A stretch of 64,000 nucleotides of DNA from Candidatus Coatesbacteria bacterium (GTDB lineage Bacteria > RBG-13-66-14 > B26-G2 > JAUVZD01), in assembly GCA_030602715.1 (NCBI GenBank), contig JAUVZD010000001.1, positions 364,557-428,556 of the forward strand, read 5' to 3'. The stretch's first letter is position 1. Every line of letters begins with the position of its first letter. Shown piece after piece: positions 7,607-21,713 of the stretch. A program made the position numbers and the translations under genes. The notes under the pieces are model-generated. The model did not search any database. It saw only the letters and a program-made list of their open reading frames with translations, and was not told the origin of the DNA.

Positions 7607-8229
7607 ATCTCTCCTTTTTCGGCAAGCTCCCTCAGCTTCTTGGCGGCGGAGCTGAAGGCTTTGAACCGATGACTTATGGCGTTCTTCTCCTGCGGTGAAA
7701 TCTCCGCCAGGGTCTTTCCCGTCTGGGGGAGAAGGAACATAGGGTCGTAACCGAAACCGCTCTCCCCCCTGCTCTCCGTGGCGATAACTCCCTCAAGTGA
7801 GCCCTCAACGGTAAAGAGAACCTCATCCGGAACTGCAGCCACAACAGCGGTGCGGAAGCGAGCCCCTCGCATTCCCTCCGCCACGCCCTCCATCTCCGCG
7901 AGCAGTTTTCTACAGTTATCCGCATAGCTCGCCTCAGGACCCGCATAACGGGAGGAATAGACCCCTGGAGCCCCATCCAGAGCCTCCACCTCCAGGGCGG
8001 TATCATCCGCCAGGGTCAACCTCCCCAGCACCTTCGCTACCGAAAGCGCCTTGATCTGTGCATTCTCCTCAATTGTCGCCCCGGTCTCAGCCACCTCCTC
8101 CCAGGCGGGAAGCTCCTCGGGGCTCAACAGACGAATATCGCCGCCGGGCTCAAGTATTGCCCTTATCTCCCCCACCTTATCCATGTTGTGGGTAGCCAAA
8201 GCCACCTCAATAATCCCCTCGGGGGTCAT
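7603..8229 (-). CDS. rdgB: Non-canonical purine NTP pyrophosphatase RdgB/Ham1
   Basis: LATHNMDK, ETGATIEENA, ADDTALEV, APGVYSSRYAG, GFGYDPMF, KNAISHR. Confidence 0.96.
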   Translation of the reverse strand: MTPEGIIEVALATHNMDKVGEIRAILEPGGDIRLLSPEELPAWEEVAETGATIEENAQIKALSVAKVLGRLTLADDTALEVEALDGAPGVYSSRYAGPEASYADNCRKLLAEMEGVAEGMRGARFRTAVVAAVPDEVLFTVEGSLEGVIATESRGESGFGYDPMFLLPQTGKTLAEISPQEKNAISHRFKAFSSAAKKLRELAEKGEI

Positions 8230-8954
8230 TTAATCTCCAGACCTATCGCTTTCATCTGAACGCTGCTGATCTGCTTAATGCCTGAGAGGGCAAGTTCAAT
8301 AACTTCATCTACCAGCTGTTTGCTAAAAGGGGCTGTCTCTCCGCTTCCCTGAAATTCCACCAGCTCCCCTTTGGATGTTGCCACCACATTGAAGTCCGCC
8401 GATGCGCTACTGTCCTCCTCATAGTCCACATCCAACAACAATATCCCCTCAACCAACGCACAGCTCACCGCACCCACATACTCCTTCAGGGGCCATTCAT
8501 TCAGCCATCCCTCGTCTCGCTTTCCGCTCAGGGCGAGGTTGAGGGCTACAAGTGCGCCGTTAACCGCTGCGGTTCGGGTGCCTCCGTCGGCCTGGATGAC
8601 ATCGCAGTCCACCCACACGGTATTTTCGCCCAGCTTCTTCAGGTCGGTAACCGCCCTCAGTGACCGCCCCACCAGCCGTCCTATCTCCGAACTACGCCCG
8701 CTGACAAAAGCCCTTATGCGGTCCCTTATCTTCCTGCCACCACCGGCAGTGGGGAGCATATCGTATTCGGCTGTTATCCAGCCCCGCCCCTGACCCCTAA
8801 GCCAGTTGGGAACTCCCATCTCCACCACCGCGGTGCACACCACCCAGGTATCGCCCATACGCACCAGGGCACTCCCGTCGGGGTGCATCAGATAGTTAGG
8901 GACAATCTCCAGAGGGCGCAATTCATCTTCCGCCCTTCCATCCTTGCGCTCCAT
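8226..8954 (-). CDS. rph: Ribonuclease PH
   Basis: GRAEDELRP, GWITAEYDMLP, EIGRLVGRSLR, DVIQADGGTRTAA. Canonical rph-rdgB pair. Confidence 0.97.
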   Translation of the reverse strand: MERKDGRAEDELRPLEIVPNYLMHPDGSALVRMGDTWVVCTAVVEMGVPNWLRGQGRGWITAEYDMLPTAGGGRKIRDRIRAFVSGRSSEIGRLVGRSLRAVTDLKKLGENTVWVDCDVIQADGGTRTAAVNGALVALNLALSGKRDEGWLNEWPLKEYVGAVSCALVEGILLLDVDYEEDSSASADFNVVATSKGELVEFQGSGETAPFSKQLVDEVIELALSGIKQISSVQMKAIGLEIK

Positions 8955-9013
8955 ACTCCTCCAATCATGTATGATGATATGCCATTAAATCTTCCTCATC
9001 TTTTCTCGCAGGC

Positions 9014-9829
9014 TCACAGCTCCAGCCCCTCAATCTCCGCCAGCTGGACATCAATGTGCTCCTGGTCCAGGAAGGTGCAGGCAACTTTATTAAAATCGTG
9101 GGGAATATCGGTGACGAAGAAGAGCCGACCGGAGGACTCCTTGCGTTTCGGGGAGAGCTCTCCCTGCTCCTTCAATATTTGCTCCACTTCAACCGCCGCC
9201 TGATAGGCGGAATCTATCAGCTTCACTCCACTCCCCATGACCTCACGGATGACCGGCTTTAGCAGGGGATAATGGGTGCAGCCCAGAACCAGGGTATCTA
9301 TCCCCCTGTCCAGCAGGGGGTCCAGATAGCGTTTGGCTATCAGGTAAGCCACCTCATCTGCATACCAGCCCTCCTCCACCAGGGGGACGAAGAGGGGGCA
9401 GGCACGCTCAAAGACGGTGGCGGAATCATCCAGCCGGTGAATGGCGTCAAAATAAGCCCTGCTGGCGATGGTGGTCTTGGTGCCGATCACCCCCACCTGC
9501 TTGGTCTTGGTGGTCTCCACCGCACCCAGGGCTCCACTATTCACCACCCCGACAATCGGCACCGGGGATTTCTCCTGCAGAACGTCCATAGCCACTGAGG
9601 AGGCGGTGTTGCAAGCCACCACCACCAACTTCAGGTCAAAGCGAGAGAGGAAGCCAAGACATTCCAGGGCGAATCGGCGCACCGTCTCCTCGGATTTGTT
9701 GCCGTAGGGCAGGCGAGCGGTATCCCCCAGATAGACGGTGTCCTCGTAGGGCAGGCGGGAGAAGACCTCCTTTGCCACGGTAAGTCCTCCCACACCGGAA
9801 TCAAATATGCCTATAACCCCCTCCATCAT
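9014..9829 (-). CDS. murI: Glutamate racemase
   Basis: IFDSGVGGLTV, DTARLPYG, VACNTAS, LGCTHYP. Confidence 0.97.
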   Translation of the reverse strand: MMEGVIGIFDSGVGGLTVAKEVFSRLPYEDTVYLGDTARLPYGNKSEETVRRFALECLGFLSRFDLKLVVVACNTASSVAMDVLQEKSPVPIVGVVNSGALGAVETTKTKQVGVIGTKTTIASRAYFDAIHRLDDSATVFERACPLFVPLVEEGWYADEVAYLIAKRYLDPLLDRGIDTLVLGCTHYPLLKPVIREVMGSGVKLIDSAYQAAVEVEQILKEQGELSPKRKESSGRLFFVTDIPHDFNKVACTFLDQEHIDVQLAEIEGLEL

Positions 9830-10437
9830 GGCTGTTCCATCTCCAATGGTTCATGTTTATAGCTCCAGATTTTGCCCACTATGCCGGTTATGGGCTGGGA
9901 GCAGTCCAGATGACCCGCCAGGCTCTCCACCGTATCACCCTGATACAATATCTGATAACCCTCAACCTCCACCAGATTGCTTCTCAGGGTGAGCAGGATG
10001 GCGTTTAAGGCAAGCATCTCCCCGCTGGAGCCGGTGTGCACCTCCAGTTGGGAGAAGTTCAGATAGGCGATGCCCTGCTCCACCTCAACCGATTCCAGGG
10101 TAACGACGCCGGGAAGGACCGGAAAGTGCTCCTCCTCCTGTGGTCCTTCCATTAAGGCGGTGAGCAGTTCCACAACCATCTCCTCTACGGTGTCGTGTCG
10201 GGGAAGGCGCCTCTTCTCCTCCAGTAACCTCAGCTCGTCGCCCTGCGAGGACCCGAAATAGAGCAGTGCGTTCCAGGTCTCCCCCTCCTCAGCCGGCGGC
10301 TTCTTCTCCGGCTCCGCAATCTCCTCCCTCTGCCCGATGATATAGCGTATGCCGAAATACATCCCAGCCACCACCACCAAACCCACCACCGACCATAGCA
10401 CAATCAGGGGCCAAGCCCTCTCCTTTCCCCGATTCAT
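9826..10437 (-). CDS. GerMN domain-containing membrane protein
   Basis: N-terminal TM, LYFG, LTALMEGP, AYLNFS, GSSGEMLAL, SLAGHLDCSQP. Typical amidase-GerMN-murI-rph synteny. Confidence 0.85.
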   Translation of the reverse strand: MNRGKERAWPLIVLWSVVGLVVVAGMYFGIRYIIGQREEIAEPEKKPPAEEGETWNALLYFGSSQGDELRLLEEKRRLPRHDTVEEMVVELLTALMEGPQEEEHFPVLPGVVTLESVEVEQGIAYLNFSQLEVHTGSSGEMLALNAILLTLRSNLVEVEGYQILYQGDTVESLAGHLDCSQPITGIVGKIWSYKHEPLEMEQP

Positions 10438-12167: not shown

Positions 12168-15041
12168 CTAATAATTCCACCCCACGAAGAACCGCACCGG
12201 GGTGTCCTTGGAGATGGAATGAAAGTCGGTCTTTTTGGCGACATCCAGCCTGAAGACGAAGACATTGAACAGTCCCCAGCGAAGGCTGAAGCCAAAGTCC
12301 CCCCTCACTCCCCCCAGCTTCTCGTCCCAGGCTTCACCTATATCAAAGAATAAAGCCCCGTGGAAGCTCCCCAGATTTGCTTTCCCAATCGGCGTATCTA
12401 TGACCATTTCTTTCAGAATGGGGAAACGTAGTTCCTGGTTGAATATAAACAACTTGGTGCCCATAAAATCACGATATTTATAGCCCCGCATGGAGAGGCT
12501 CCCCCCCATAGCCAAGGGAAGGACATCAGGGCCTCCACTGGCCCGAAAGATGAGCCTCAGGGCATAACAGCTCTGCTGGCTTATGCGGACATATCGGCGC
12601 AGGTCGCAGGAAAGGAGGTAATACTGGAACTCCTGTCGGGTCAAGTCGCCGGTCTGGCTTACGGTCAGATTATAGCGGGAGCCGTCAATGGGACCCACCG
12701 AGTTCCACAGGGAAGTATCTTTGACAAAGCTGACATAGTGCGAAATTGCCACACCACCCTTCAAAGGCTCATCAAAGAAAGACCGCCTGAAGCCGTAGAG
12801 GTTTACTCCAGATTCAATACGATAGAAACGGGAGAGGGGATAGGAAAGGAGGACGGTTGCACCGTAACGCCTTTCGCTGTAGAGGTAGCCCAGGTTCCAA
12901 TCGTAGTAGTCGTCCAGGTAATGAAAGCCCCCCAAGCCGAAGTTGAGACGGTGGGCGAGATTATAGTAATTGACCCCTATATTCATTCGGCTGAAGAAGT
13001 CGCCTACGGTCTCTGCGGAGTTGGAGAAGCTCAAAGTGATCATATTATCGTTAAGCATGTCGGTAAAACTGAAGATAGCCCCAGCCCCACCTCCGAAGTC
13101 CGGGGAATATGCCACCTCAGCCTGGATGATATCCAGGGAATAGTCGGCGCTATACTTTTCGTGGGGATAATCGTCCGCCATATCCCCCTCCGCTTCCTCC
13201 TGGCCATCTCCTTCCTCTAAAATGACCTCCACCGAGCCGATGAAAGCAGAGCGATAGGGCATGGTCAAAATAGAGATGTTTCCCTCACTATAGCAGTCAA
13301 ATATCAGCTCCTCTCCATCCGTGGTCAGGGTGGGCTCAAATGCTCCGGTGGTGAAGTTGGTATTCTGCCAGAGCTCGCCCGTGGAAAGGTCAAGAGTGTA
13401 AATATTGAACCGCCCACTGCGGTCGGAGGCGAAGAGAACCTTACCACCTTCAAGAGGACGGGGATGGATATCCCGGCAGTGCTCATAGGTCAAACGCTCC
13501 ACCTCCCCAAGCCCACCTTCTTCGGTCAACTTCAACAGATACAGACTGCTCTCGTCCTCCCCCTCATCCGCCGAGCGGTCGGAGGAGAAGAGGACGTTTT
13601 CTCCATCGGGCAGGACGGTTGGGTCCCGGTCTGCATATCGGTCGTCGGTCAGAGCGGTCAGCTCCCCGTTAGCTCTATCCAGCAGATAGATGTCCATCTG
13701 CCCGGAGAGGTCCTGCCCGGCAAAGACCAGTTTATCCCCCCGGGGAAAGAAGGCGGGCGAAAAGATGCCTATCAATTTTTCAAAGCGGTAGGTGGCGACC
13801 ACCTCCCGGCTGTTCAAATCCATTATGTTGAGCACATCGTTTGCCCCGCTCTTGGAGACGAAGGCAAGCTCGCCTGACGGGCTCACCGCCAGGGAACTGC
13901 GGAAGATATGCAGGGACTCAAACTCAGGCGTCCGCTGACCCTTGACGATACACTCCACATCGCTCAAATAGATGCTTCTTACACCATGGTCACTTACCTC
14001 CAGACAACCCATATAGATATTGGTGTAGCCACTGCGATTGGAGACGAAGACCAGGTAATCTCTGCCGCCCAGGGTGAAGGCTTCAGCTGAGACATCAACA
14101 CTCTCGCTCTTCGCCAGGGGGAGAGCGGAGGTGGTCGGCTCATCGTACTCCACCACCAGGGGAAGATACTCCTCCCGCAGTTTCCCCTCCCAGCCCCGAG
14201 AGAGCGTCCCCACATCCACGCCCAGAGTAAACTCCATCACCTTGTTGAAGCTCTCATCCACCCAGATATTGTCCAGCATAGCCGGTATCTTATCCTCCCC
14301 GTAGGTCTCGGCGATGTATCCCACCAGGCTCTGCCCTTCCTTATAAACCAGATATGAGCGGTAAGAATGATGAATATCCTCCAGGGGGGCAAAGTAGCCG
14401 TTAAGAACCGCATCACCAAGCACCATATCCGCTTCGCTGTCCCACCGGGATGAGTAATACTCGGCGATTCCCTCCATATACCACAACGGAGGGATGGGAT
14501 AGTAGAACTTGTCCCGGGAGCGCATCACAAACTTTATCTTGTTGAGGGTGAAGTAGTGGACTACTTCGTGGGTGAGGGTGGCACGGAAGCGGGAAAGGGA
14601 GCCGTCAAAGGGCATCAACACCCGACCCTTGAAGAACTCGGTCACCCCTGCGACGGATTCGGGAAGGATGTAGGGGATGACATTGGTCTCCTGGAAGGGT
14701 TGATGGCTGGAGTAGATGATAAGGGGGATTTTGGATGTAAGGGTGTGGTTGAGATGGACCGAGAGGGTGGGGATTATGGTCTCCAGCATCTCGGCGGCTT
14801 CCAGAGCGAGCCACTTCTCCTGGGGGTAGAAATATATGTCAGCGGAAGGAGTGTGCATGACCTGCCAATCCAGGTCCAGGTATTGCACCTTGTTTTTTCC
14901 GAAATAGTAGTATCCACAAGACACCTCTGGCAACACCAGGAGAGAGAGAGCTACCACGATAAACAAACAAACTCCCAACTTTGCCGTTGCTCTCCCAGTA
15001 TATCGGTGAACAGGAGTTCTATCTTCGGTAAAAATACGCAA
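12168..15041 (-). CDS. Omp85-family outer membrane protein with N-terminal gluzincin (peptidase MA-like) domain and PD40/WD40-like propeller
   Basis: Signal peptide, YFGKNKVQY, HEVVH followed by LWYMEGIAEY, PD40-like repeats, C-terminal barrel with LAMGGSLSMRGY and terminal FFVGWNY. Confidence 0.85.
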   Translation of the reverse strand: MRIFTEDRTPVHRYTGRATAKLGVCLFIVVALSLLVLPEVSCGYYYFGKNKVQYLDLDWQVMHTPSADIYFYPQEKWLALEAAEMLETIIPTLSVHLNHTLTSKIPLIIYSSHQPFQETNVIPYILPESVAGVTEFFKGRVLMPFDGSLSRFRATLTHEVVHYFTLNKIKFVMRSRDKFYYPIPPLWYMEGIAEYYSSRWDSEADMVLGDAVLNGYFAPLEDIHHSYRSYLVYKEGQSLVGYIAETYGEDKIPAMLDNIWVDESFNKVMEFTLGVDVGTLSRGWEGKLREEYLPLVVEYDEPTTSALPLAKSESVDVSAEAFTLGGRDYLVFVSNRSGYTNIYMGCLEVSDHGVRSIYLSDVECIVKGQRTPEFESLHIFRSSLAVSPSGELAFVSKSGANDVLNIMDLNSREVVATYRFEKLIGIFSPAFFPRGDKLVFAGQDLSGQMDIYLLDRANGELTALTDDRYADRDPTVLPDGENVLFSSDRSADEGEDESSLYLLKLTEEGGLGEVERLTYEHCRDIHPRPLEGGKVLFASDRSGRFNIYTLDLSTGELWQNTNFTTGAFEPTLTTDGEELIFDCYSEGNISILTMPYRSAFIGSVEVILEEGDGQEEAEGDMADDYPHEKYSADYSLDIIQAEVAYSPDFGGGAGAIFSFTDMLNDNMITLSFSNSAETVGDFFSRMNIGVNYYNLAHRLNFGLGGFHYLDDYYDWNLGYLYSERRYGATVLLSYPLSRFYRIESGVNLYGFRRSFFDEPLKGGVAISHYVSFVKDTSLWNSVGPIDGSRYNLTVSQTGDLTRQEFQYYLLSCDLRRYVRISQQSCYALRLIFRASGGPDVLPLAMGGSLSMRGYKYRDFMGTKLFIFNQELRFPILKEMVIDTPIGKANLGSFHGALFFDIGEAWDEKLGGVRGDFGFSLRWGLFNVFVFRLDVAKKTDFHSISKDTPVRFFVGWNY

Positions 15042-15052
15042 GGTGGTTTGTG

Positions 15053-15217
15053 CTACTTACTCTTCTTATGCCGCCTGCCAGCCAACCAGGCGTGAATCAG
15101 AATGGTGAGGCTGATGGTGTCCAGAGCTATAAGGATACAGAGAATTGCTAAATCCGGTAGAATATAACACTCCACCACCTTGAATGTTTTCAGAATAAGA
15201 AAAATAATTGAAGCCAT
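15053..15217 (-). CDS. Possible small hydrophobic protein (54 aa)
   Basis: GGAGG RBS ahead of ATG 15217, hydrophobic core, basic tail. Fills an AT-rich gap. No recognisable family. Confidence 0.35.
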   Translation of the reverse strand: MASIIFLILKTFKVVECYILPDLAILCILIALDTISLTILIHAWLAGRRHKKSK

Positions 15218-16031: not shown

Positions 16032-17396
16032 CTAAGCGGTTGAGACGCTCTCCATGCAGTATAGAACCTCCTCCTCGGAGACCGCCAGGGGACAGCCCCC
16101 ACCGCAGACCTCCAACTCCGGGCAGTCATGGCACTTCTCCATCAGGAACTTCCGCTCCCGCAAATCCTCCAATAAGGTATGATGCCAGATTTTTTCCCAA
16201 TCATCCTTGAGGATATTACCCACCGATTGATAGTAGCTCTGGCAGGGGAGCACCTCTCCATCCGGCTCTACGCACATATTATACTTCCCCGCAGTGCATT
16301 GCTTTATACCCAGCTCCAGTTCAAGGGGGTTGAAAAGGCAATATTGGGTGGGGGTATACCAGATAAAGCGCAGGTTGTTGCGCTGGCAAGCGGAGAGAAG
16401 CCTCGGCAGAACTTCGCTCAATTCATCCTCGGATATCGCAAAGGGGTAGCCCTTGCCGTGCCCGGAGCAGATGATGCCGTTTGCGGCGATCACCTCCAAC
16501 CCCAGGGAAGCAAGAAAGTCCACCGTCTTTTCAATAGTCGGCGAGTTATGCTTGGTCAGTGTAGTGTTGGTAATAGTATAGACCGGGGTGTTGATGGCGT
16601 TCTTTATGCTGGCTACGGTCTCCCGCCAGGCACCTTTCTCTCCCACCATCAGGTTGTGGATGGACTCATCATGGCTCTCCAGGGTAATCTGAAAATGGTC
16701 TATTCCGGCAAGCACCAGTCCATCAAGATAGTCCTTATCGGCTAGTTTGCGCCCGTTGGTCAGAAGCCCGGTAACCACCCCCAAATCCTCGGCATACTCC
16801 ACAAGCTCCCGCAAATCCTCCCGCACTGTAGCCTCACCGCCGGTAAAGCAGATATGGGGAATTCCCGCCTCCCAGCAACGCTTGATGACCTTCTTCCACT
16901 GCTCGGTAGAGAACTCCTCAACCTGGCGGGGCTTGCCGACATAACAGTGGGGGCACATATTCTGACAGCGGTAGGTCAAAGCCAGGTCCATGCGGTAGGG
17001 GGCTATGGTCTCGGAGGTAAAGGGCTCAATGCGTTCAACATCCAGGAAGGTTATGGGACAGACATCGTCGGTTGTGGTGAGGATATCCATCATCTCCTTA
17101 ATCCTCTCCAAATCATCCACAACCTGCTTTTTGCTCACCCGATAGCGCCGTTTCATGCTCTTGATTATCTCTTCGTCGTCGGCGTCAGCCATAATCATCC
17201 TGGCATACTCCGTGCCGGTGGGATTGAGATGGATAATCTTGCTGGCGTTCAGTATCAGCGTGCCCGCGCCCCCCTCCTCCACCCGCAGGTGGAGCCGAAA
17301 GTTGCCGAACTCGTTATCTATTCGCTTCTCATACAAGCCCGTTTCCAGTGGCTTCTGTATGGTGAAGAATCCCTTTATTTTCCCTTTCACTCCCAT
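16032..17396 (-). CDS. Radical SAM/SPASM peptide-maturase-like protein with N-terminal PqqD/RRE-like domain
   Basis: CQNMCPHC, FTGGEAT, LLTNG. SPASM motifs CTAGKYNMCVEPDGEVLPC and CHDCPELEVCGGGC. N-terminal LNPTG..YARMI..DDEEII..RRYRV..VVDDL resembles PqqD. Confidence 0.9.
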   Translation of the reverse strand: MGVKGKIKGFFTIQKPLETGLYEKRIDNEFGNFRLHLRVEEGGAGTLILNASKIIHLNPTGTEYARMIMADADDEEIIKSMKRRYRVSKKQVVDDLERIKEMMDILTTTDDVCPITFLDVERIEPFTSETIAPYRMDLALTYRCQNMCPHCYVGKPRQVEEFSTEQWKKVIKRCWEAGIPHICFTGGEATVREDLRELVEYAEDLGVVTGLLTNGRKLADKDYLDGLVLAGIDHFQITLESHDESIHNLMVGEKGAWRETVASIKNAINTPVYTITNTTLTKHNSPTIEKTVDFLASLGLEVIAANGIICSGHGKGYPFAISEDELSEVLPRLLSACQRNNLRFIWYTPTQYCLFNPLELELGIKQCTAGKYNMCVEPDGEVLPCQSYYQSVGNILKDDWEKIWHHTLLEDLRERKFLMEKCHDCPELEVCGGGCPLAVSEEEVLYCMESVSTA

Positions 17397-17421: not shown

Positions 17422-17613
17422 TCATACCTGTTGCTGTTCCAGAGCTATCACCACCAACTCGTCATCCTCTTGCAGGTGGAAACCCACCTTCGGGTTCAGA
17501 TAAAGCTTACCCTCCCTTATCACCTCAACCGGTATAGCCCGATGGTTATGCATAAGGATCCCAAAAACCAAACAACATAACTGACGAGAATTACAGTGGT
17601 TATCTTTCTCCAA
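17422..17613 (-). pseudogene. Remnant of a TrkA-C/RCK C-terminal domain
   Basis: AIPVEVIREGKLYLNPKVGFHLQEDDELVVIA matches the RCK-C pattern. No N-terminal domains are present. Confidence 0.45.
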
Positions 17614-17855
17614 TTACGACGCAAAATACAATATATCCAGAATAAAATCCTGGTAGCACTATTCATATCCATCCCTCAAACTATATTCTTATTTATGAAA
17701 AGTATATCACGAATTTAGTCCAACTGTAAAGGGAATAAATGCCCCTTTAATCCCCTCCTATTCCGCAAAAAAGACTGATTTTGCCCTAAAGTTGGATTTT
17801 ATTCCATATCACTTACCGAGTAGCCTGGGGTCAGCTTATGTATATGATAAATTAA

Positions 17856-17881
17856 AGGGTGTCCTTATGCAAGGACACCCT
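17856..17881 (-). terminator. Intrinsic terminator downstream of the Cys-tail membrane protein gene
   Basis: Perfect 11-bp stem AGGGTGTCCTT/AAGGACACCCT with a 4-nt loop, followed by TTAATTT on the minus strand, 15 nt after the stop. Confidence 0.75.
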
Positions 17882-17896
17882 AAAAAATACTCAACC

Positions 17897-19534
17897 CTAT
17901 CTTCCACCACCGGCGCAGGCACAGGCACATCCGGCGCAAGCGCAAGCGCAGGCGCAAGAACTACCCCCACCACTACTTCTTCCACCCCCGCCCTTGTAAG
18001 ATGATACCGGCGGGGGATTGGTCTTGGCGGTAACTCCACCGGTGAAACCGGTTACGCTTCCCACTATGTTCTTTGAGAAATTCTGCATCTTACCGATGAC
18101 CCCGGCGGCGAAGGAAGAACCGGGAAGTGAGGGCACGGTTATCTTCCCCCCGCCCGCACCCCCCCTACCCCCACCAACTGTGCCGGGCCACCAGCCCGGC
18201 GCATAGACCGTTCTGCCGACGAAGATGGTGCGGGTGTTCTCCTCAAAGTCATCGTCCATTATAGTCCACTCTACATTATCCTCCCAACGAGCCATCGCCA
18301 GCTCCGGAGTATCCGCACTCTTCACCGTCTCCCATGCCTTCTTGACGATGGATTGGTAATACTCAATCGTCTCCCTTCGGCTGAAGCCCTTCATCCGCTT
18401 GTTGACATTCTTGATCATATTGATCAGCACCTTGCGCAGTCTGACTTCGCTCAAATTACCTTTTTTGGTAATCGCCTCCATAAATTCCACCTCATACTCA
18501 CGCGGTTTAGCATCCGATGGTATAGATAGCTTCTTCAGCTTCAGGGGGTCCTCCGACTTCACCGAAAGAGAGCGTTTCTTCAACAGTCCGAACAGTATCA
18601 TGGTCAATATCTTATTTAGAGGAAGCTCCAGGACCAGGGCGGCTTCAGGGGCGGTCAAGCCCCGCTTTATGCCCACACCCTCTATTGAGGCTTTGGCGGG
18701 CATGTATTTCATCCTCCTCATCCTATTGCCGACGACGGCGAGGAAGATGATTATGCCGATTGTCCCGAAGGGAATCAGACAGGGCAGGAAGGTGAAGATA
18801 AAACCCAGCAGACCACTTAAGAACTTCTCAAAGCCCGAAGGCGGTGAGCTTATCGGACCGGTCACATAGGCTCTGGGGAAGGAGACTCCAAAAAAATACT
18901 GGGTGTAGGGGTTGGCGGAAGGATTATGCCAGGTATAGACTACTCGGTCATCTAGAAATCCCATAGCGGTGGGTGGGCTCATATCTTCGCCGGTGTGGTA
19001 GCGGGGCTCCTCGGAGTTCAAGCCCGGCGGAAAGTGGATGTGCACGGTCAGGTCGGTGGTGCCGTGGGCGTAATCACTGCCGAACCAGGTGGTGGCGAAG
19101 ACCACGCTGGCGTAGTTCTGGTCGCTTTCGTCGCCGTAGACCATATTGTAGTTGCGCCCCATCACCGTCAGGGTCTTGGTCTCCCCGGGCATTATCTGCT
19201 GGCTACCGCTCAGGTGCACCTCAATGCCGATGTCTATGTATTCCGAGACCCGGATATCGTATAACTGCTCACCGTCAATCCAGGCTTCACAGGAGTCGAG
19301 ATCGTAATCATTTGAGGGAAAGCCGACATCCACCACATCTATGGGGTCGGCGAATGTGTCGTTACTGAATGTAAATTGATACTGGATGACCAGGGAGCAG
19401 TCCGGGTCAATGAATACATCCACCACCTCTTTGGGCATCGCGAAGTAATAATATTGCCCGTAAGCGACGGCACCCGAAAACAACACCGCCAAAAAAGCCA
19501 CCCAGAGGAAATGTCTCATCGCTTTCTCCATCAT
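17897..19534 (-). CDS. Membrane protein with Gly/Ser linker and C-terminal Cys-Ala repeat tail (CACACACAGCACACAGGGR)
   Basis: Signal peptide, DUF2207-like beta ectodomain, TM LLGFIFTFLPCLIPFGTIGIIIFLAVVG, cytoplasmic domain KRGLTAPEAALVL, 7-Cys tail. GGAGG RBS. Confidence 0.9.
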   Translation of the reverse strand: MMEKAMRHFLWVAFLAVLFSGAVAYGQYYYFAMPKEVVDVFIDPDCSLVIQYQFTFSNDTFADPIDVVDVGFPSNDYDLDSCEAWIDGEQLYDIRVSEYIDIGIEVHLSGSQQIMPGETKTLTVMGRNYNMVYGDESDQNYASVVFATTWFGSDYAHGTTDLTVHIHFPPGLNSEEPRYHTGEDMSPPTAMGFLDDRVVYTWHNPSANPYTQYFFGVSFPRAYVTGPISSPPSGFEKFLSGLLGFIFTFLPCLIPFGTIGIIIFLAVVGNRMRRMKYMPAKASIEGVGIKRGLTAPEAALVLELPLNKILTMILFGLLKKRSLSVKSEDPLKLKKLSIPSDAKPREYEVEFMEAITKKGNLSEVRLRKVLINMIKNVNKRMKGFSRRETIEYYQSIVKKAWETVKSADTPELAMARWEDNVEWTIMDDDFEENTRTIFVGRTVYAPGWWPGTVGGGRGGAGGGKITVPSLPGSSFAAGVIGKMQNFSKNIVGSVTGFTGGVTAKTNPPPVSSYKGGGGRSSGGGSSCACACACAGCACACAGGGR

Positions 19535-19562: not shown

Positions 19563-19757
19563 TCATCTGTGGACTATTCTATAGATGCGACCGCAATATG
19601 AACACCTGAATCTATACATGGACACTTGCTCGTTATCCTCCCCAAGCGGCGCACCGCAGGAGTAGCAATGCATCCGCTCCCTCCCCAACCCACGATACCT
19701 CTCCTCCAACCCTCCCCGCAAAAGTTTTAGCTCTCCCCTATGACCGTCTCCCTCCAT
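19563..19757 (-). CDS. Small zinc-ribbon protein
   Basis: CYSCGAPL...CSYCG. Starts 2 nt after the upstream stop. Confidence 0.7.
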   Translation of the reverse strand: MEGDGHRGELKLLRGGLEERYRGLGRERMHCYSCGAPLGEDNEQVSMYRFRCSYCGRIYRIVHR

Positions 19758-19759
19758 CC

Positions 19760-20086
19760 CTAATCCTTCTCATCGTCCACATAGACCTGATAACTAGCCC
19801 CGCAGAAAGGGCAACTGACCAACGCCAGGTTACCCTCTATGACCAGATCATCCCTCTTAATCGGCGCCCCGCACTTTTTGCATTCTATCTCCTCAAGTTT
19901 GATCTTGCCACCAAGCTGTATCTCCTCCCTGGAGCCTGAGGTCGCTGTGGGCTCGCCCCTTCCCTCCTTCCTACCCGAGGCCAAGGACTTGATTATGGCA
20001 ATCACCACGACGACTAAAGCCGCCAAGAAGATAAGCACGAAGATGAAACCAAGCCCCATCATACCACTCATACCCATATGACCCAT
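19760..20086 (-). CDS. Membrane-anchored zinc-ribbon protein
   Basis: One TM, then CKKCGAPI...CPFCGASYQV. Start placed at ATG 20086 after GGAGG; the alternative is GTG 20116. Confidence 0.82.
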   Translation of the reverse strand: MGHMGMSGMMGLGFIFVLIFLAALVVVVIAIIKSLASGRKEGRGEPTATSGSREEIQLGGKIKLEEIECKKCGAPIKRDDLVIEGNLALVSCPFCGASYQVYVDDEKD

Positions 20087-20109
20087 AACCCAATCCCTCC
20101 AAGGAGCAT

Positions 20110-20496
20110 CTACCACTTGGGTTCTTCGGATATCTGATATACCGAACCGCAGTAGGGGCAGTGCACGGTGATAGCCCCGCCTTCAACCGAGATGGATTTC
20201 TTATCTACAGGACCACCGCACTGTTCACACTTCAGCTTCTCCATCTCCAAATCACCGGTAAGTTCAATCTGCTGGGTGATCTCTATCTTCTGTTCCTTTC
20301 GCTTCTGCCACCAAGCGAATCCGATGATTGCTAATCCCACTACGATGAGGGCCACACCCACACCACACCACAATCCCAACTGCCCGCCGGCTTGTGCTTC
20401 CTCACTTGTGGAGGCTATCACAAACAGAACCCCAAAAAGAATCATCAAGATGGCAACGATAATACCGACAATTCTCAGTCCCCGCAAACCGTTCAC
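20110..20496 (-). CDS. Two-TM zinc-ribbon protein
   Basis: Two TMs, then CEQCGGPV...CPYCGSVYQISEEPKW. Its C-terminal domain is paralogous to that of the next gene. Confidence 0.85.
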   Translation of the reverse strand: MNGLRGLRIVGIIVAILMILFGVLFVIASTSEEAQAGGQLGLWCGVGVALIVVGLAIIGFAWWQKRKEQKIEITQQIELTGDLEMEKLKCEQCGGPVDKKSISVEGGAITVHCPYCGSVYQISEEPKW

Positions 20497-20635: not shown

Positions 20636-21595
20636 TTATTTTTTGCGATACTTCTCCACAATGATGGAGAGCAAGTCTATTGCGTCGGGCATGGTCAGGT
20701 TCTTGCGCCCAACTTTTACCTTGTTCCCCCGAATCTCAATGACCAGTTGTCGCAACTCCTCCTCAACCTTCTCTACAACAACTTCTTCCGGTCTCTCCTC
20801 AACCGGGGGAGCCTCCTTTGCCGGCGCTTCCTCTGCAACAGGGGGAATACCCTCAATCTTTGGTCCCTCCACCTCTATCGGCGTCGCCTCCTTTGCAGGA
20901 GCCGGTTCCACATGTCGCCCAATACCCACCTCCGCCAGTATCTCCTCCGGTTCGGTTTTTGGTTCCTCAACCTTCGGCTCCACAACCTCTGCCAGCGCTT
21001 TCTCCTCCCAGGCACTCGGTGCCAGCCCCTCCAACCCTAGCTCCTCCAGCGAGGGCAAGCCAAAACCCTCCTCCTCACCCTCGGCTGTAACTGGAACTCC
21101 CTCGGCAGGAACCTCGCCGACAGGCGGTGCAGCGGGTAATTCCTCGGGGAAGACCACAGGAGCCCTCTCCTCAGCGGCAACTCCTGGAGGTGGCGGGGGA
21201 ATCTCAGCCCCAATATCCTCAACCGGAGGCGGTGGAGGAACTTCGCCCACATCCTCCCCCACACCTACTTCCTCAAAGACGGGTATCCCCTCATCCCTAA
21301 TCGGCGGAATTTCCGGCACGACCAACTCCTCCTCCCCTACCGGGGTGGGTTCCACCTCCTCCGGAATATGGTCCACCAGGCTGTCATCCGGGATTGGCAG
21401 CGGAGCGACCTCACTCACCGCAGGCTCCCCCAAAGGAACACCCAAATCCTCAAGAACCGCTTCTCCCTCGCTCTTCTTCTCCTCAGCAAGCCCGAAGTCG
21501 CCGTACCTCAGGCTTTCCCTTAGACGCCTAGCCCTCTCCTCATTACGCCTTTTTATCGCCTCTATGGGGTCCTCTTTATCCAGTTCATCAACCAT
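20636..21595 (-). CDS. Acidic Pro/Glu/Val-rich low-complexity protein
   Basis: Helical-looking N-terminus (DPIEAIKRRNEERARRLRESL), long P/E/V/A-rich middle, compact basic C-terminal domain. RBS ahead of ATG 21595. Confidence 0.75.
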   Translation of the reverse strand: MVDELDKEDPIEAIKRRNEERARRLRESLRYGDFGLAEEKKSEGEAVLEDLGVPLGEPAVSEVAPLPIPDDSLVDHIPEEVEPTPVGEEELVVPEIPPIRDEGIPVFEEVGVGEDVGEVPPPPPVEDIGAEIPPPPPGVAAEERAPVVFPEELPAAPPVGEVPAEGVPVTAEGEEEGFGLPSLEELGLEGLAPSAWEEKALAEVVEPKVEEPKTEPEEILAEVGIGRHVEPAPAKEATPIEVEGPKIEGIPPVAEEAPAKEAPPVEERPEEVVVEKVEEELRQLVIEIRGNKVKVGRKNLTMPDAIDLLSIIVEKYRKK

Positions 21596-21713
21596 AAAAA
21601 CACTTCCCTTGCTGATTATTCCGAAAAGTGCCGAATTGTCAAAAGTCAACCACTTCCCACTATTAACTAATAATAACTTATTTCTTTAAAAATGTCAAGT
21701 GATTTCGGTTATC

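Follow-up and report, generated by a model that had tools for sequence, protein, structure and literature searches.

A near-invariant (Cys-Ala)n tail on a widespread bacterial membrane protein is a candidate substrate of a neighbouring radical SAM/SPASM enzyme

Introduction

Why should a large bacterial membrane protein end in a run of alternating cysteine and alanine residues? This question is raised by a gene on the minus strand of a 64,000-nucleotide stretch of DNA from a Candidatus Coatesbacteria bacterium (assembly GCA_030602715.1, contig JAUVZD010000001.1, positions 364,557 to 428,556; the window in the following). The gene encodes a 545-residue membrane protein whose last 19 residues contain seven cysteines (Table 1). 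An original prediction, made from the sequence of the window alone, had regarded this tail either as a modification substrate or as a metal-binding, Fe–S or redox module. We compared the protein and its genetic surroundings with those of its homologs. The protein belongs to a widespread and unnamed family of bacterial membrane proteins in which no part is as conserved as the tail, and we consider it fairly probable that it is a core-peptide-like substrate of a conserved and undescribed modification cassette. The cassette would comprise a Zn-ribbon membrane protein, the tail protein, a radical S-adenosylmethionine (rSAM)/SPASM enzyme bearing a recognition element (RRE) of the kind known from peptides that are made by the ribosome and modified after translation (RiPPs), and a methyltransferase, together with a pseudo-rSAM protein in the Anaerolineae.

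Conservation of the tail

The C-terminal stretch of the 545-residue open reading frame (ORF) reads YKGGGGRSSGGGSSCACACACAGCACACAGGGR, or in a longer excerpt TNPPPVSSYKGGGGRSSGGGSSCACACACAGCACACAGGGR, and is followed directly by the stop codon. Positions 17897-17956 hold exactly the 19 tail codons and the stop: TGC GCC TGC GCT TGC GCT TGC GCC GGA TGT GCC TGT GCC TGC GCC GGT GGT GGA AGA TAG. Cysteine is thus encoded by five TGC and two TGT codons and alanine by five GCC and two GCT codons; GCG, listed among the alanine codons in the original prediction, does not occur in frame, which is a small error. The tail is a real and highly non-random feature. The pattern (TGY GCN)x3 has a single site in the 64-kb window, namely the tail, against an expectation of 0.00 from 100 shuffles. 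Tandem Repeats Finder found two weak and imperfect hexamer arrays here, with scores of 30 and 43, both below its default threshold of 50. Two further ORFs over the tail, 17792..18004 (+) and 17836..18039 (-), were treated as spurious by-products of the GC-rich repeat.

A first homolog search gave 2,957 matches, and among the matches listed all 120 (35–94% identical) end in ...CACACA(CA)GCACACAGGGR. Since this search picked its candidates by shared five-residue words, words from the tail could have biased it toward tail-bearing proteins. As a control, residues 1–500 only, without the tail, were used in an exhaustive search, which at E<=1e-3 gave 780 representative clusters. The tail is present in 123 of the best 150 clusters, 97 of them with the canonical form and 26 with close variants such as CACACACVSCACACAGGGR and CACACACACAGGGR. 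The other 27 of the best 150 are mostly short fragments stopping mid-domain or apparent frameshifts, and at most one or two may be full-length tail-less proteins. The tail-less query gave the same result as the first search, and ascertainment bias was rejected as the source of the conservation. Homologs therefore do not usually lack the tail, nor is it highly variable among them. An alignment of homologous tails, the check proposed with the original prediction, had 30 sequences and a mean column identity of 43%; its final 17 columns are invariant in 30/30 and form the sole contiguous invariant block. Across the family, the tail is present in 316 of 345 sequences and the GGGR terminus in 310 of those 316. 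The residue following each tail cysteine is alanine in 2,211 of 2,230 cases (99.1%), and the tails mostly have seven (216 sequences) or eight (55 sequences) cysteines. The protein bodies, meanwhile, are only 30–50% identical among homologs.

The coding DNA tells on which level this conservation acts. The 130 canonical tails that we collected from different loci are encoded by 130 distinct DNA sequences. Compared in pairs, these agree with an identity of 0.989 at the first and second codon positions and of 0.42 at the third. Every one of the six arginine codons and of the three stop codons is in use, and the synonymous sites are nearly saturated. Because the third positions diverge while the peptide stays fixed, the tail is under purifying selection at the amino-acid level. 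These data strongly confirm the original prediction that the tail is maintained at the protein level, and its view that the repeat is not a slippage microsatellite is supported by the mixed codons, the weak repeat arrays and the randomised third positions.

Tail length differs across the family in whole Cys-Ala units, following (CA)2-5 G (CA)3-4 GGGR, and in a divergent clade the tails are longer and contain V/S/H spacers, as in CVCACHACACACACVSCACACAGGGAR. Judging from these sequences, the length variation is consistent with occasional hexamer insertions and deletions that are tolerated within a range of 5–10 cysteines.

Architecture and topology of the tail protein

We predicted the structure of the 545-residue protein with AlphaFold2, using a 141-sequence alignment (mean predicted local distance difference test (pLDDT) score of 88.7). 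The model contains a signal or anchor helix (residues 1–26), a beta-sandwich ectodomain (~31–220), a single long transmembrane (TM) helix (234–274) and a helical cytoplasmic domain (295–438), followed by a disordered linker, two confident helices within residues 472–505 and a disordered end (521–545) in which the tail has a pLDDT below 50. The TM helix is followed by NRMRRMK, which places positive residues on its C-terminal side. Because of the signal-peptide-like N-terminus, the one TM helix with NRMRRMK and the AlphaFold model, the protein is predicted to be N-out and C-in with a cytoplasmic tail; the original prediction, too, had placed the tail in the cytoplasm.

The two confident helices (472–490 and 494–505, pLDDT >90) belong to a leader-like conserved segment, whose conserved columns are T502, T505, N506, P507 and P509. 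The spacer between this segment and the tail varies in both sequence and length among homologs; from the TNP motif to the first cysteine there are 11–55 residues, with a median of 17.

Pfam and NCBIfam models gave no match to the window protein (NCBIfam: 0 families at E<=1). A Foldseek search with the ectodomain retrieved ribophorin I/OST1 and the M1-aminopeptidase N-domain beta-sandwich, a generic fold that offers no functional lead. DUF2207_C matched 6 of the 30 homologs weakly (best E 1.2e-4) and the DUF2207 N-domain matched one of the 30 (E 0.19), while the window protein matched neither. One UniRef name among the homologs is 'DUF2207 domain-containing protein'. On this evidence from sequence comparison, the tail protein may be a distant DUF2207 relative at best.

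A ~770-residue subfamily carries the same tail and has an extra N-terminal extracytoplasmic domain of ~220 residues (PF06439 in P0075). Some genomes possess two tandem tail-bearing paralogs (L007, 6252..7916 and 8001..10331; also P0012, P0017, P0075, P0119 and others).

Distribution and gene neighbourhood

The tail family occupies at least 314 loci in species-representative genomes and forms ~780 clusters at 50% identity. For the study of genetic context we took the 80 best-matching loci from species-representative genomes. These 80 loci belong mostly to Chloroflexota/Anaerolineae, including the cultured Bellilinea caldifistulae and Leptolinea, and the others include Zixibacteria, Edwardsbacteria, Cloacimonadota, deltaproteobacterial metagenome-assembled genomes and Bacteroidales. 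In Bellilinea caldifistulae GOMI-1 the locus lies in NZ_LGHJ01000016.1 (region 122267-143892), and in Leptolinea sp. HRD-7 it lies in AP024710.1 (region 3026571-3048217).

Five independent homolog contexts (36–68% identity) showed the same neighbours as the window. Of the 68 loci with enough flanking sequence, 61 have an rSAM gene that starts within -500..+700 nt of the tail stop codon and has the same orientation as the tail gene, and two more have one within 2 kb. In 70 of 73 loci the gene directly upstream is that of the Zn-ribbon membrane protein, and the methyltransferase gene lies downstream in 39 of the 54 loci with a flank of at least 4.5 kb. Unbiased all-against-all clustering of the neighbours of ~80 loci returned exactly four conserved same-strand families, which include the rSAM, the methyltransferase and the Zn-ribbon protein; no others are conserved. 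The association also holds in the reverse direction. When metagenome loci were collected from the rSAM alignment, 62 of 80 had a (CA)n-tail ORF ending just upstream of the rSAM gene, at a median distance of 68 nt. Every complete tail ORF beside this rSAM clade is a full-length member of the tail-protein family, and we rejected the possibility that the tail is a portable module attached to other protein families. The pairwise identities of the tail-protein bodies and of their adjacent rSAMs are correlated (r=0.84, Mantel 0/999), which shows co-inheritance only and not interaction. The modification-substrate branch of the original prediction, which had not considered the gene context, thus gained strong support, because a dedicated rSAM/SPASM protein with a PqqD-like RRE adjoins the tail gene in ~90% of loci.

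The radical SAM enzyme and its paralog

The window rSAM matches the Pfam models Radical_SAM (79 bits), SPASM (44.6 bits) and PqqD (PF05402; 23.7 bits, residues 49–98). In its Bellilinea counterparts, PqqD scores 21.2 bits in the active rSAM and 29.2 bits in the pseudo-rSAM. The CxxxCxxC motif (C144/148/151) is kept in 57 of 57 orthologs, and the SPASM cysteines (353, 367, 375, 385, 422, 425, 431, 435 and 447) are kept in the aligned orthologs. The enzyme falls below the cut-off of every NCBIfam equivalog that it matches (PqqE, SkfB, AlbA, MftC, GeoRSP, ACGX, ScmE/F, HxsC and others); PqqE is the best with 123 bits against a cut-off of 381, and none of the 25 matches listed comes near its cut-off. 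Among PDB sequences, the sactisynthase SkfB is nearest (3.6e-20), followed by PqqE (1e-15) and CteB (3.6e-10). The downstream methyltransferase is a generic class I enzyme according to its family matches.

In Anaerolineae, a second rSAM paralog is encoded between the active rSAM and the methyltransferase, for example at 13080..14270 (+) in L073 and 12644..13798 in L083. This paralog keeps the PqqD-like RRE and the barrel, lacks the CxxxCxxC motif in 45 of 46 copies, has no SPASM domain and usually retains one or two cysteines. It is a pseudo-rSAM. As a pseudo-enzyme that has no copy in the window, it was rejected as a co-catalyst.

Other features of the window

The coordinates of the features are collected in Table 1. 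The window has three tandem Zn-ribbon paralogs (19563..20496, -), and most other loci have one copy of ~120 residues; the window protein with two TM helices scores 91 bits against the cassette member of Bellilinea. Homologs of the 54-residue protein are found in L001 (14764..14931), L003 (11854..12018) and L098, and it is conserved in this lineage. It was rejected as the true precursor, being a hydrophobic two-helix protein without a conserved cysteine pattern. In L001, a 68%-identical relative, a full 354-residue K+-channel gene and a 501-residue ORF occupy the gap between the tail gene and the rSAM gene, and the 63-residue ORF found in the window gap looks like a remnant of a deleted channel gene.

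Beyond the methyltransferase, the window encodes a 957-residue protein (12168..15041, -) in which a Peptidase_MA domain and a PD40/TolB-like beta-propeller are fused to a C-terminal Omp85-type barrel. This gene also follows the rSAM–methyltransferase pair in L001, L098 and L108, and is unconserved in the Anaerolineae loci. On the other side, 20636..21649 (-) encodes a low-complexity protein of 337 residues that is highly acidic, rich in Pro/Glu/Val and matches no family; L001 has an unannotated ORF of 299 residues in the equivalent position.

Table 1. Features of the tail locus in the window
Feature	Coordinates	Strand	Basis or remark
Whole tail-protein gene	17897..19534	-	545-aa ORF, bitopic membrane protein
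Core-like tail CACACACAGCACACAGGGR, residues 527-545	17900..17956	-	ORF translation and homolog alignment
Stop codon TAG of tail gene	17897..17899	-	
Gly/Ser-rich flexible spacer GGGGRSSGGGSS, residues 515-526	17957..17992	-	variable among homologs, low pLDDT
Leader-like conserved segment, residues ~469-514	17993..18130	-	LPGxxFAxxV...FTxxVTxxTNPxP, two predicted helices
Radical SAM/SPASM enzyme, 454 aa, N-terminal PqqD-like RRE	16032..17396	-	Pfam; proposed tail maturase
Class I SAM-dependent methyltransferase, 259 aa	15247..16026	-	Pfam Methyltransf_11/25
Hydrophobic two-helix protein, 54 aa (MASIIFLILK...RRHKKSK)	15053..15217	-	after methyltransferase
Membrane protein, 2 TM helices and cytoplasmic C4 Zn-ribbon, 128 aa	20110..20496	-	conserved upstream cassette member
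Second Zn-ribbon paralog, 1 TM and ribbon, 118 aa	19760..20116	-	37 bits to cassette member
Third Zn-ribbon protein, soluble, 64 aa	19563..19757	-	directly upstream of tail gene
Terminator-like hairpin	17856..17881	-	11-bp stem then T-rich run, right after tail gene
Promoter-like site ahead of rSAM	17701..17730	-	
K+-channel gene remnant, 63-aa ORF	17422..17613	-	matches C-terminal part of TrkA_C/Castor_Poll_mid only

Proposed modification of the tail

A recognition-like segment, a variable spacer and an invariant cysteine-rich core beside an RRE-bearing rSAM/SPASM enzyme make up the grammar of a precursor of rSAM-modified RiPPs. The locus departs from this grammar in two respects: the 'leader' is a structured membrane protein of 500 residues, and neither a protease nor an exporter belongs to the conserved genes. 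By analogy with such systems, the tail is probably a protein-tethered, RiPP-like core that is modified by the rSAM, with thioether cross-links as the probable product. The near-invariant alanines and the terminal GGGR fit enzyme recognition or chemistry better than plain metal chelation. We favour Cys-to-Ala/Gly thioether chemistry because of the analogy with SkfB, AlbA, CteB and QhpD and because of the near-absolute conservation of alanine, and we favour a cytoplasmic modification because the predicted topology places the disordered tail where such enzymes work.

The reaction could proceed as follows. The RRE of the rSAM would dock on the FTxxVTxxTNPxP segment, a candidate docking site, and the (Cys-Ala)n core would reach the active site by way of the flexible spacer. 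Hydrogen might be taken from alanine (C-alpha or C-beta) or from glycine by the 5'-deoxyadenosyl radical, and cysteine thiolates at an auxiliary cluster might form thioether cross-links, up to one per cysteine. The methyltransferase might add a further modification. The conserved cassette includes neither a protease nor an exporter, so the product would stay tethered at the cytoplasmic face of the membrane as a rigid, cross-linked and possibly metal- or redox-active module.

Several points count against this proposal. The type of modification is proposed by analogy only. The PqqD match of the window rSAM is marginal (23.7 bits against a cut-off of 23.4), and the sequence similarity of the enzyme to SkfB, PqqE and CteB is of a kind shared by SPASM enzymes in general. 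Metal-thiolate sites, too, classically have CxC motifs as ligands. The genetic linkage has exceptions as well: five tail-bearing loci have no rSAM within 3–10 kb, with no alternative maturase evident in these five, and around ~10 rSAM genes no tail gene lies within 6 kb. Several of the latter begin an rSAM–methyltransferase(–peptidase) unit, like the one in the window. In the window itself, a strong terminator-like hairpin and a 500-nt gap with a gene remnant part the tail gene from the rSAM gene, and the two are probably transcribed separately, as the hairpin follows the tail gene and a promoter-like site precedes the rSAM gene. Finally, co-divergence of the two proteins is expected for any two vertically inherited neighbours. 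In one of the loci with no adjacent rSAM, from an Edwardsbacteria genome (L027, 11636..12674, +), the tail gene is followed by ORFs resembling CysK and CysE, a likeness that was judged by eye from the N-terminal sequences and may be coincidental.

Alternative explanations

The strongest competitor, which we regard as unlikely, leaves the tail unmodified and makes it a multi-thiolate metal, Fe–S or redox module on the cytoplasmic face, either as a metallothionein-like Zn/Cu/Cd cluster or as two Fe–S clusters on seven to eight cysteines. In that case the adjacent rSAM would have another target or would assist only in cofactor loading. CxC spacing of cysteines is typical of the metal-thiolate clusters of metallothioneins, and the seven to eight tail cysteines have this spacing; the disorder of the tail in the apo model and the conservation of cytoplasmic Zn-ribbon partners also suit a metal site. 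Metal motifs of the CxC type, however, normally allow a variable x, which here is alanine with hardly an exception and is accompanied by a near-invariant GGGR. In addition, the adjacent enzyme bears the PqqD/RRE peptide-recognition domain typical of peptide maturases, and no other candidate substrate is conserved in the cassette. A metal module explains the cysteines and leaves the invariant alanine, the GGGR and a dedicated RRE enzyme without explanation. The two readings are compatible, and modification could create a metal site.

A second possibility is that the tail, once modified, is cut out to yield a free peptide or a small cofactor, in analogy with pyrroloquinoline quinone (PQQ) and mycofactocin, and that the membrane protein is a leader or scaffold of unusual size. 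In its favour, the rSAM matches PqqE best among the NCBIfam models and second best among the PDB sequences, and the order of conserved segment, spacer and C-terminal core mirrors a RiPP leader and core. We think this improbable, since the conserved cassette families include no protease, peptidase or exporter, the peptidase_MA/PD40/Omp85 protein is lineage-specific with a predicted envelope location, and a 500-residue structured protein with a conserved ectodomain is unlikely to be merely a leader.

Slightly less probable again is a role of the tail as a docking or regulatory element, or as a sulfur donor or carrier, for instance in a persulfide relay or as a ligand for the open cluster site of the rSAM. 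A cysteine-rich, cytoplasmic and flexible tail closely associated with an Fe–S enzyme would suit such a role, which nevertheless leaves the invariant alanine and GGGR unexplained; we know of no precedent for docking or sulfur carriage among the RRE-bearing SPASM maturases.

The last explanation, a DNA-level accident (hexamer slippage or a nucleic-acid element) without protein function, can draw on the weak hexamer arrays and on a CA copy number that varies by one-CA units among homologs, and is refuted by the codon-position comparison of the 130 independent tails, by the conservation of the tail across phyla and by an Rfam search of the window that gave no match.

Comparison with known systems

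The rSAM/SPASM enzymes with an RRE that mature sactipeptides and ranthipeptides join a cysteine sulfur to a carbon of another residue. The tail locus resembles these systems (AlbA, SkfB, CteB and the SCIFF maturases) in its enzyme, whose rSAM core has the CxxxCxxC motif and is joined by a SPASM domain and an N-terminal PqqD-like RRE, and in its adjacent candidate substrate gene with a cysteine-rich C-terminal core after a conserved recognition segment. It differs in that the proposed substrate is the tail of a 545-residue bitopic membrane protein instead of a short secreted peptide and has an invariant (Cys-Ala)n repeat as its core. The conserved genes include no leader protease and no exporter family, and the enzyme is accompanied by a Cys-less pseudo-rSAM, a methyltransferase and a Zn-ribbon membrane protein.

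QhpD is an rSAM/SPASM enzyme that places several cysteine thioethers in QhpC, the gamma subunit of quinohaemoprotein amine dehydrogenase. QhpC is similar to the proposed product in having several such thioethers in a protein that is kept in a functional complex and not released as a natural product. As a subunit, however, QhpC is small and periplasmic, has Cys-to-Asp/Glu links and belongs with a quinone cofactor, while the proposed substrate here is a cytoplasmic tail of Cys, Ala and Gly; a QhpD-type model is absent among the top 25 NCBIfam matches listed for the rSAM. As for the anaerobic sulfatase-maturating enzymes, whose substrate motif around the target cysteine is (C/S)-x-(P/A)-x-R, the tail contains no CxPxR or CxAxR, and the context of its last cysteine is C-A-G-G-G-R.

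DUF2207 proteins (PF09972/PF20990) share with the tail protein an extracytoplasmic beta-rich N-domain, a TM helix, a cytoplasmic helical region and a Gly-rich C-terminus. They end in Gly-rich tails that are not known to carry the (CA)n motif. The literature searched contained no description of the motif and no paper mentioning both DUF2207 and radical SAM.

The original prediction had compared the tail with the TIGR04222 proteins. These are multi-pass, mostly actinobacterial membrane proteins with Cys-bearing C-terminal Gly/Ser tails, putative substrates of the MNIO (DUF692) enzymes with which they have a frequent genetic association (PMC12452194). Their tails are diverse and predicted to be periplasmic, and over a quarter of the proteins have no C-proximal cysteine (PMC12452194). 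The likeness lies in a true membrane protein with a C-terminal tail of low complexity that contains cysteines and is probably acted on by a nearby RiPP-type enzyme, and in a Gly/Ser-rich C-terminal region with cysteines, here the spacer followed by the (CA)n tail. The tail studied here is nevertheless invariant, predicted to be cytoplasmic and linked to an rSAM rather than to an MNIO enzyme; no MNIO is among the conserved neighbour families of the ~80 clustered loci. Membership in TIGR04222 was rejected, as the 545-residue protein has no NCBIfam match at E<=1, and the comparison survives as an analogy only, with a different partner enzyme. We found no curated family or paper that describes the tail system, which would make it an undescribed variant of rSAM/SPASM maturation on a large membrane protein.

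Implications

Altogether, the interpretation of the tail as a modification substrate is substantially strengthened. We propose only tentatively, as a possibility that we consider doubtful, that the system represents a new class of protein modification, in which an rSAM/SPASM enzyme turns a poly(Cys-Ala) membrane-protein tail into a tethered, multiply cross-linked structure. The product might be a Cys-to-Ala thioether ladder, that is, a radical route to lanthionine- or sactionine-like links, or alternatively a protein-derived metal or redox cofactor. It would be located at the cytoplasmic membrane face in many anaerobic Chloroflexota, Zixibacteria and other phyla, and the Cys-less pseudo-rSAM may serve as a dedicated chaperone.

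Maturases of the rSAM/SPASM type are mostly known to act on short peptides, which are afterwards cleaved and exported. The evidence presented here points to such an enzyme acting on the tail of a large and widespread membrane protein, with a core more strictly conserved than almost any RiPP core. If this is true, RiPP-type chemistry would extend to bona fide proteins, in parallel with the recent MNIO/TIGR04222 proposal and by another class of enzyme. Work on the function of DUF2207-like membrane proteins would gain its first starting point, and there would be a simple repetitive (Cys-Ala)n substrate for studies of iterative rSAM catalysis and of the role of pseudo-rSAMs. The cultured carriers Bellilinea caldifistulae GOMI-1 and Leptolinea sp. 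HRD-7 make this reading directly testable.

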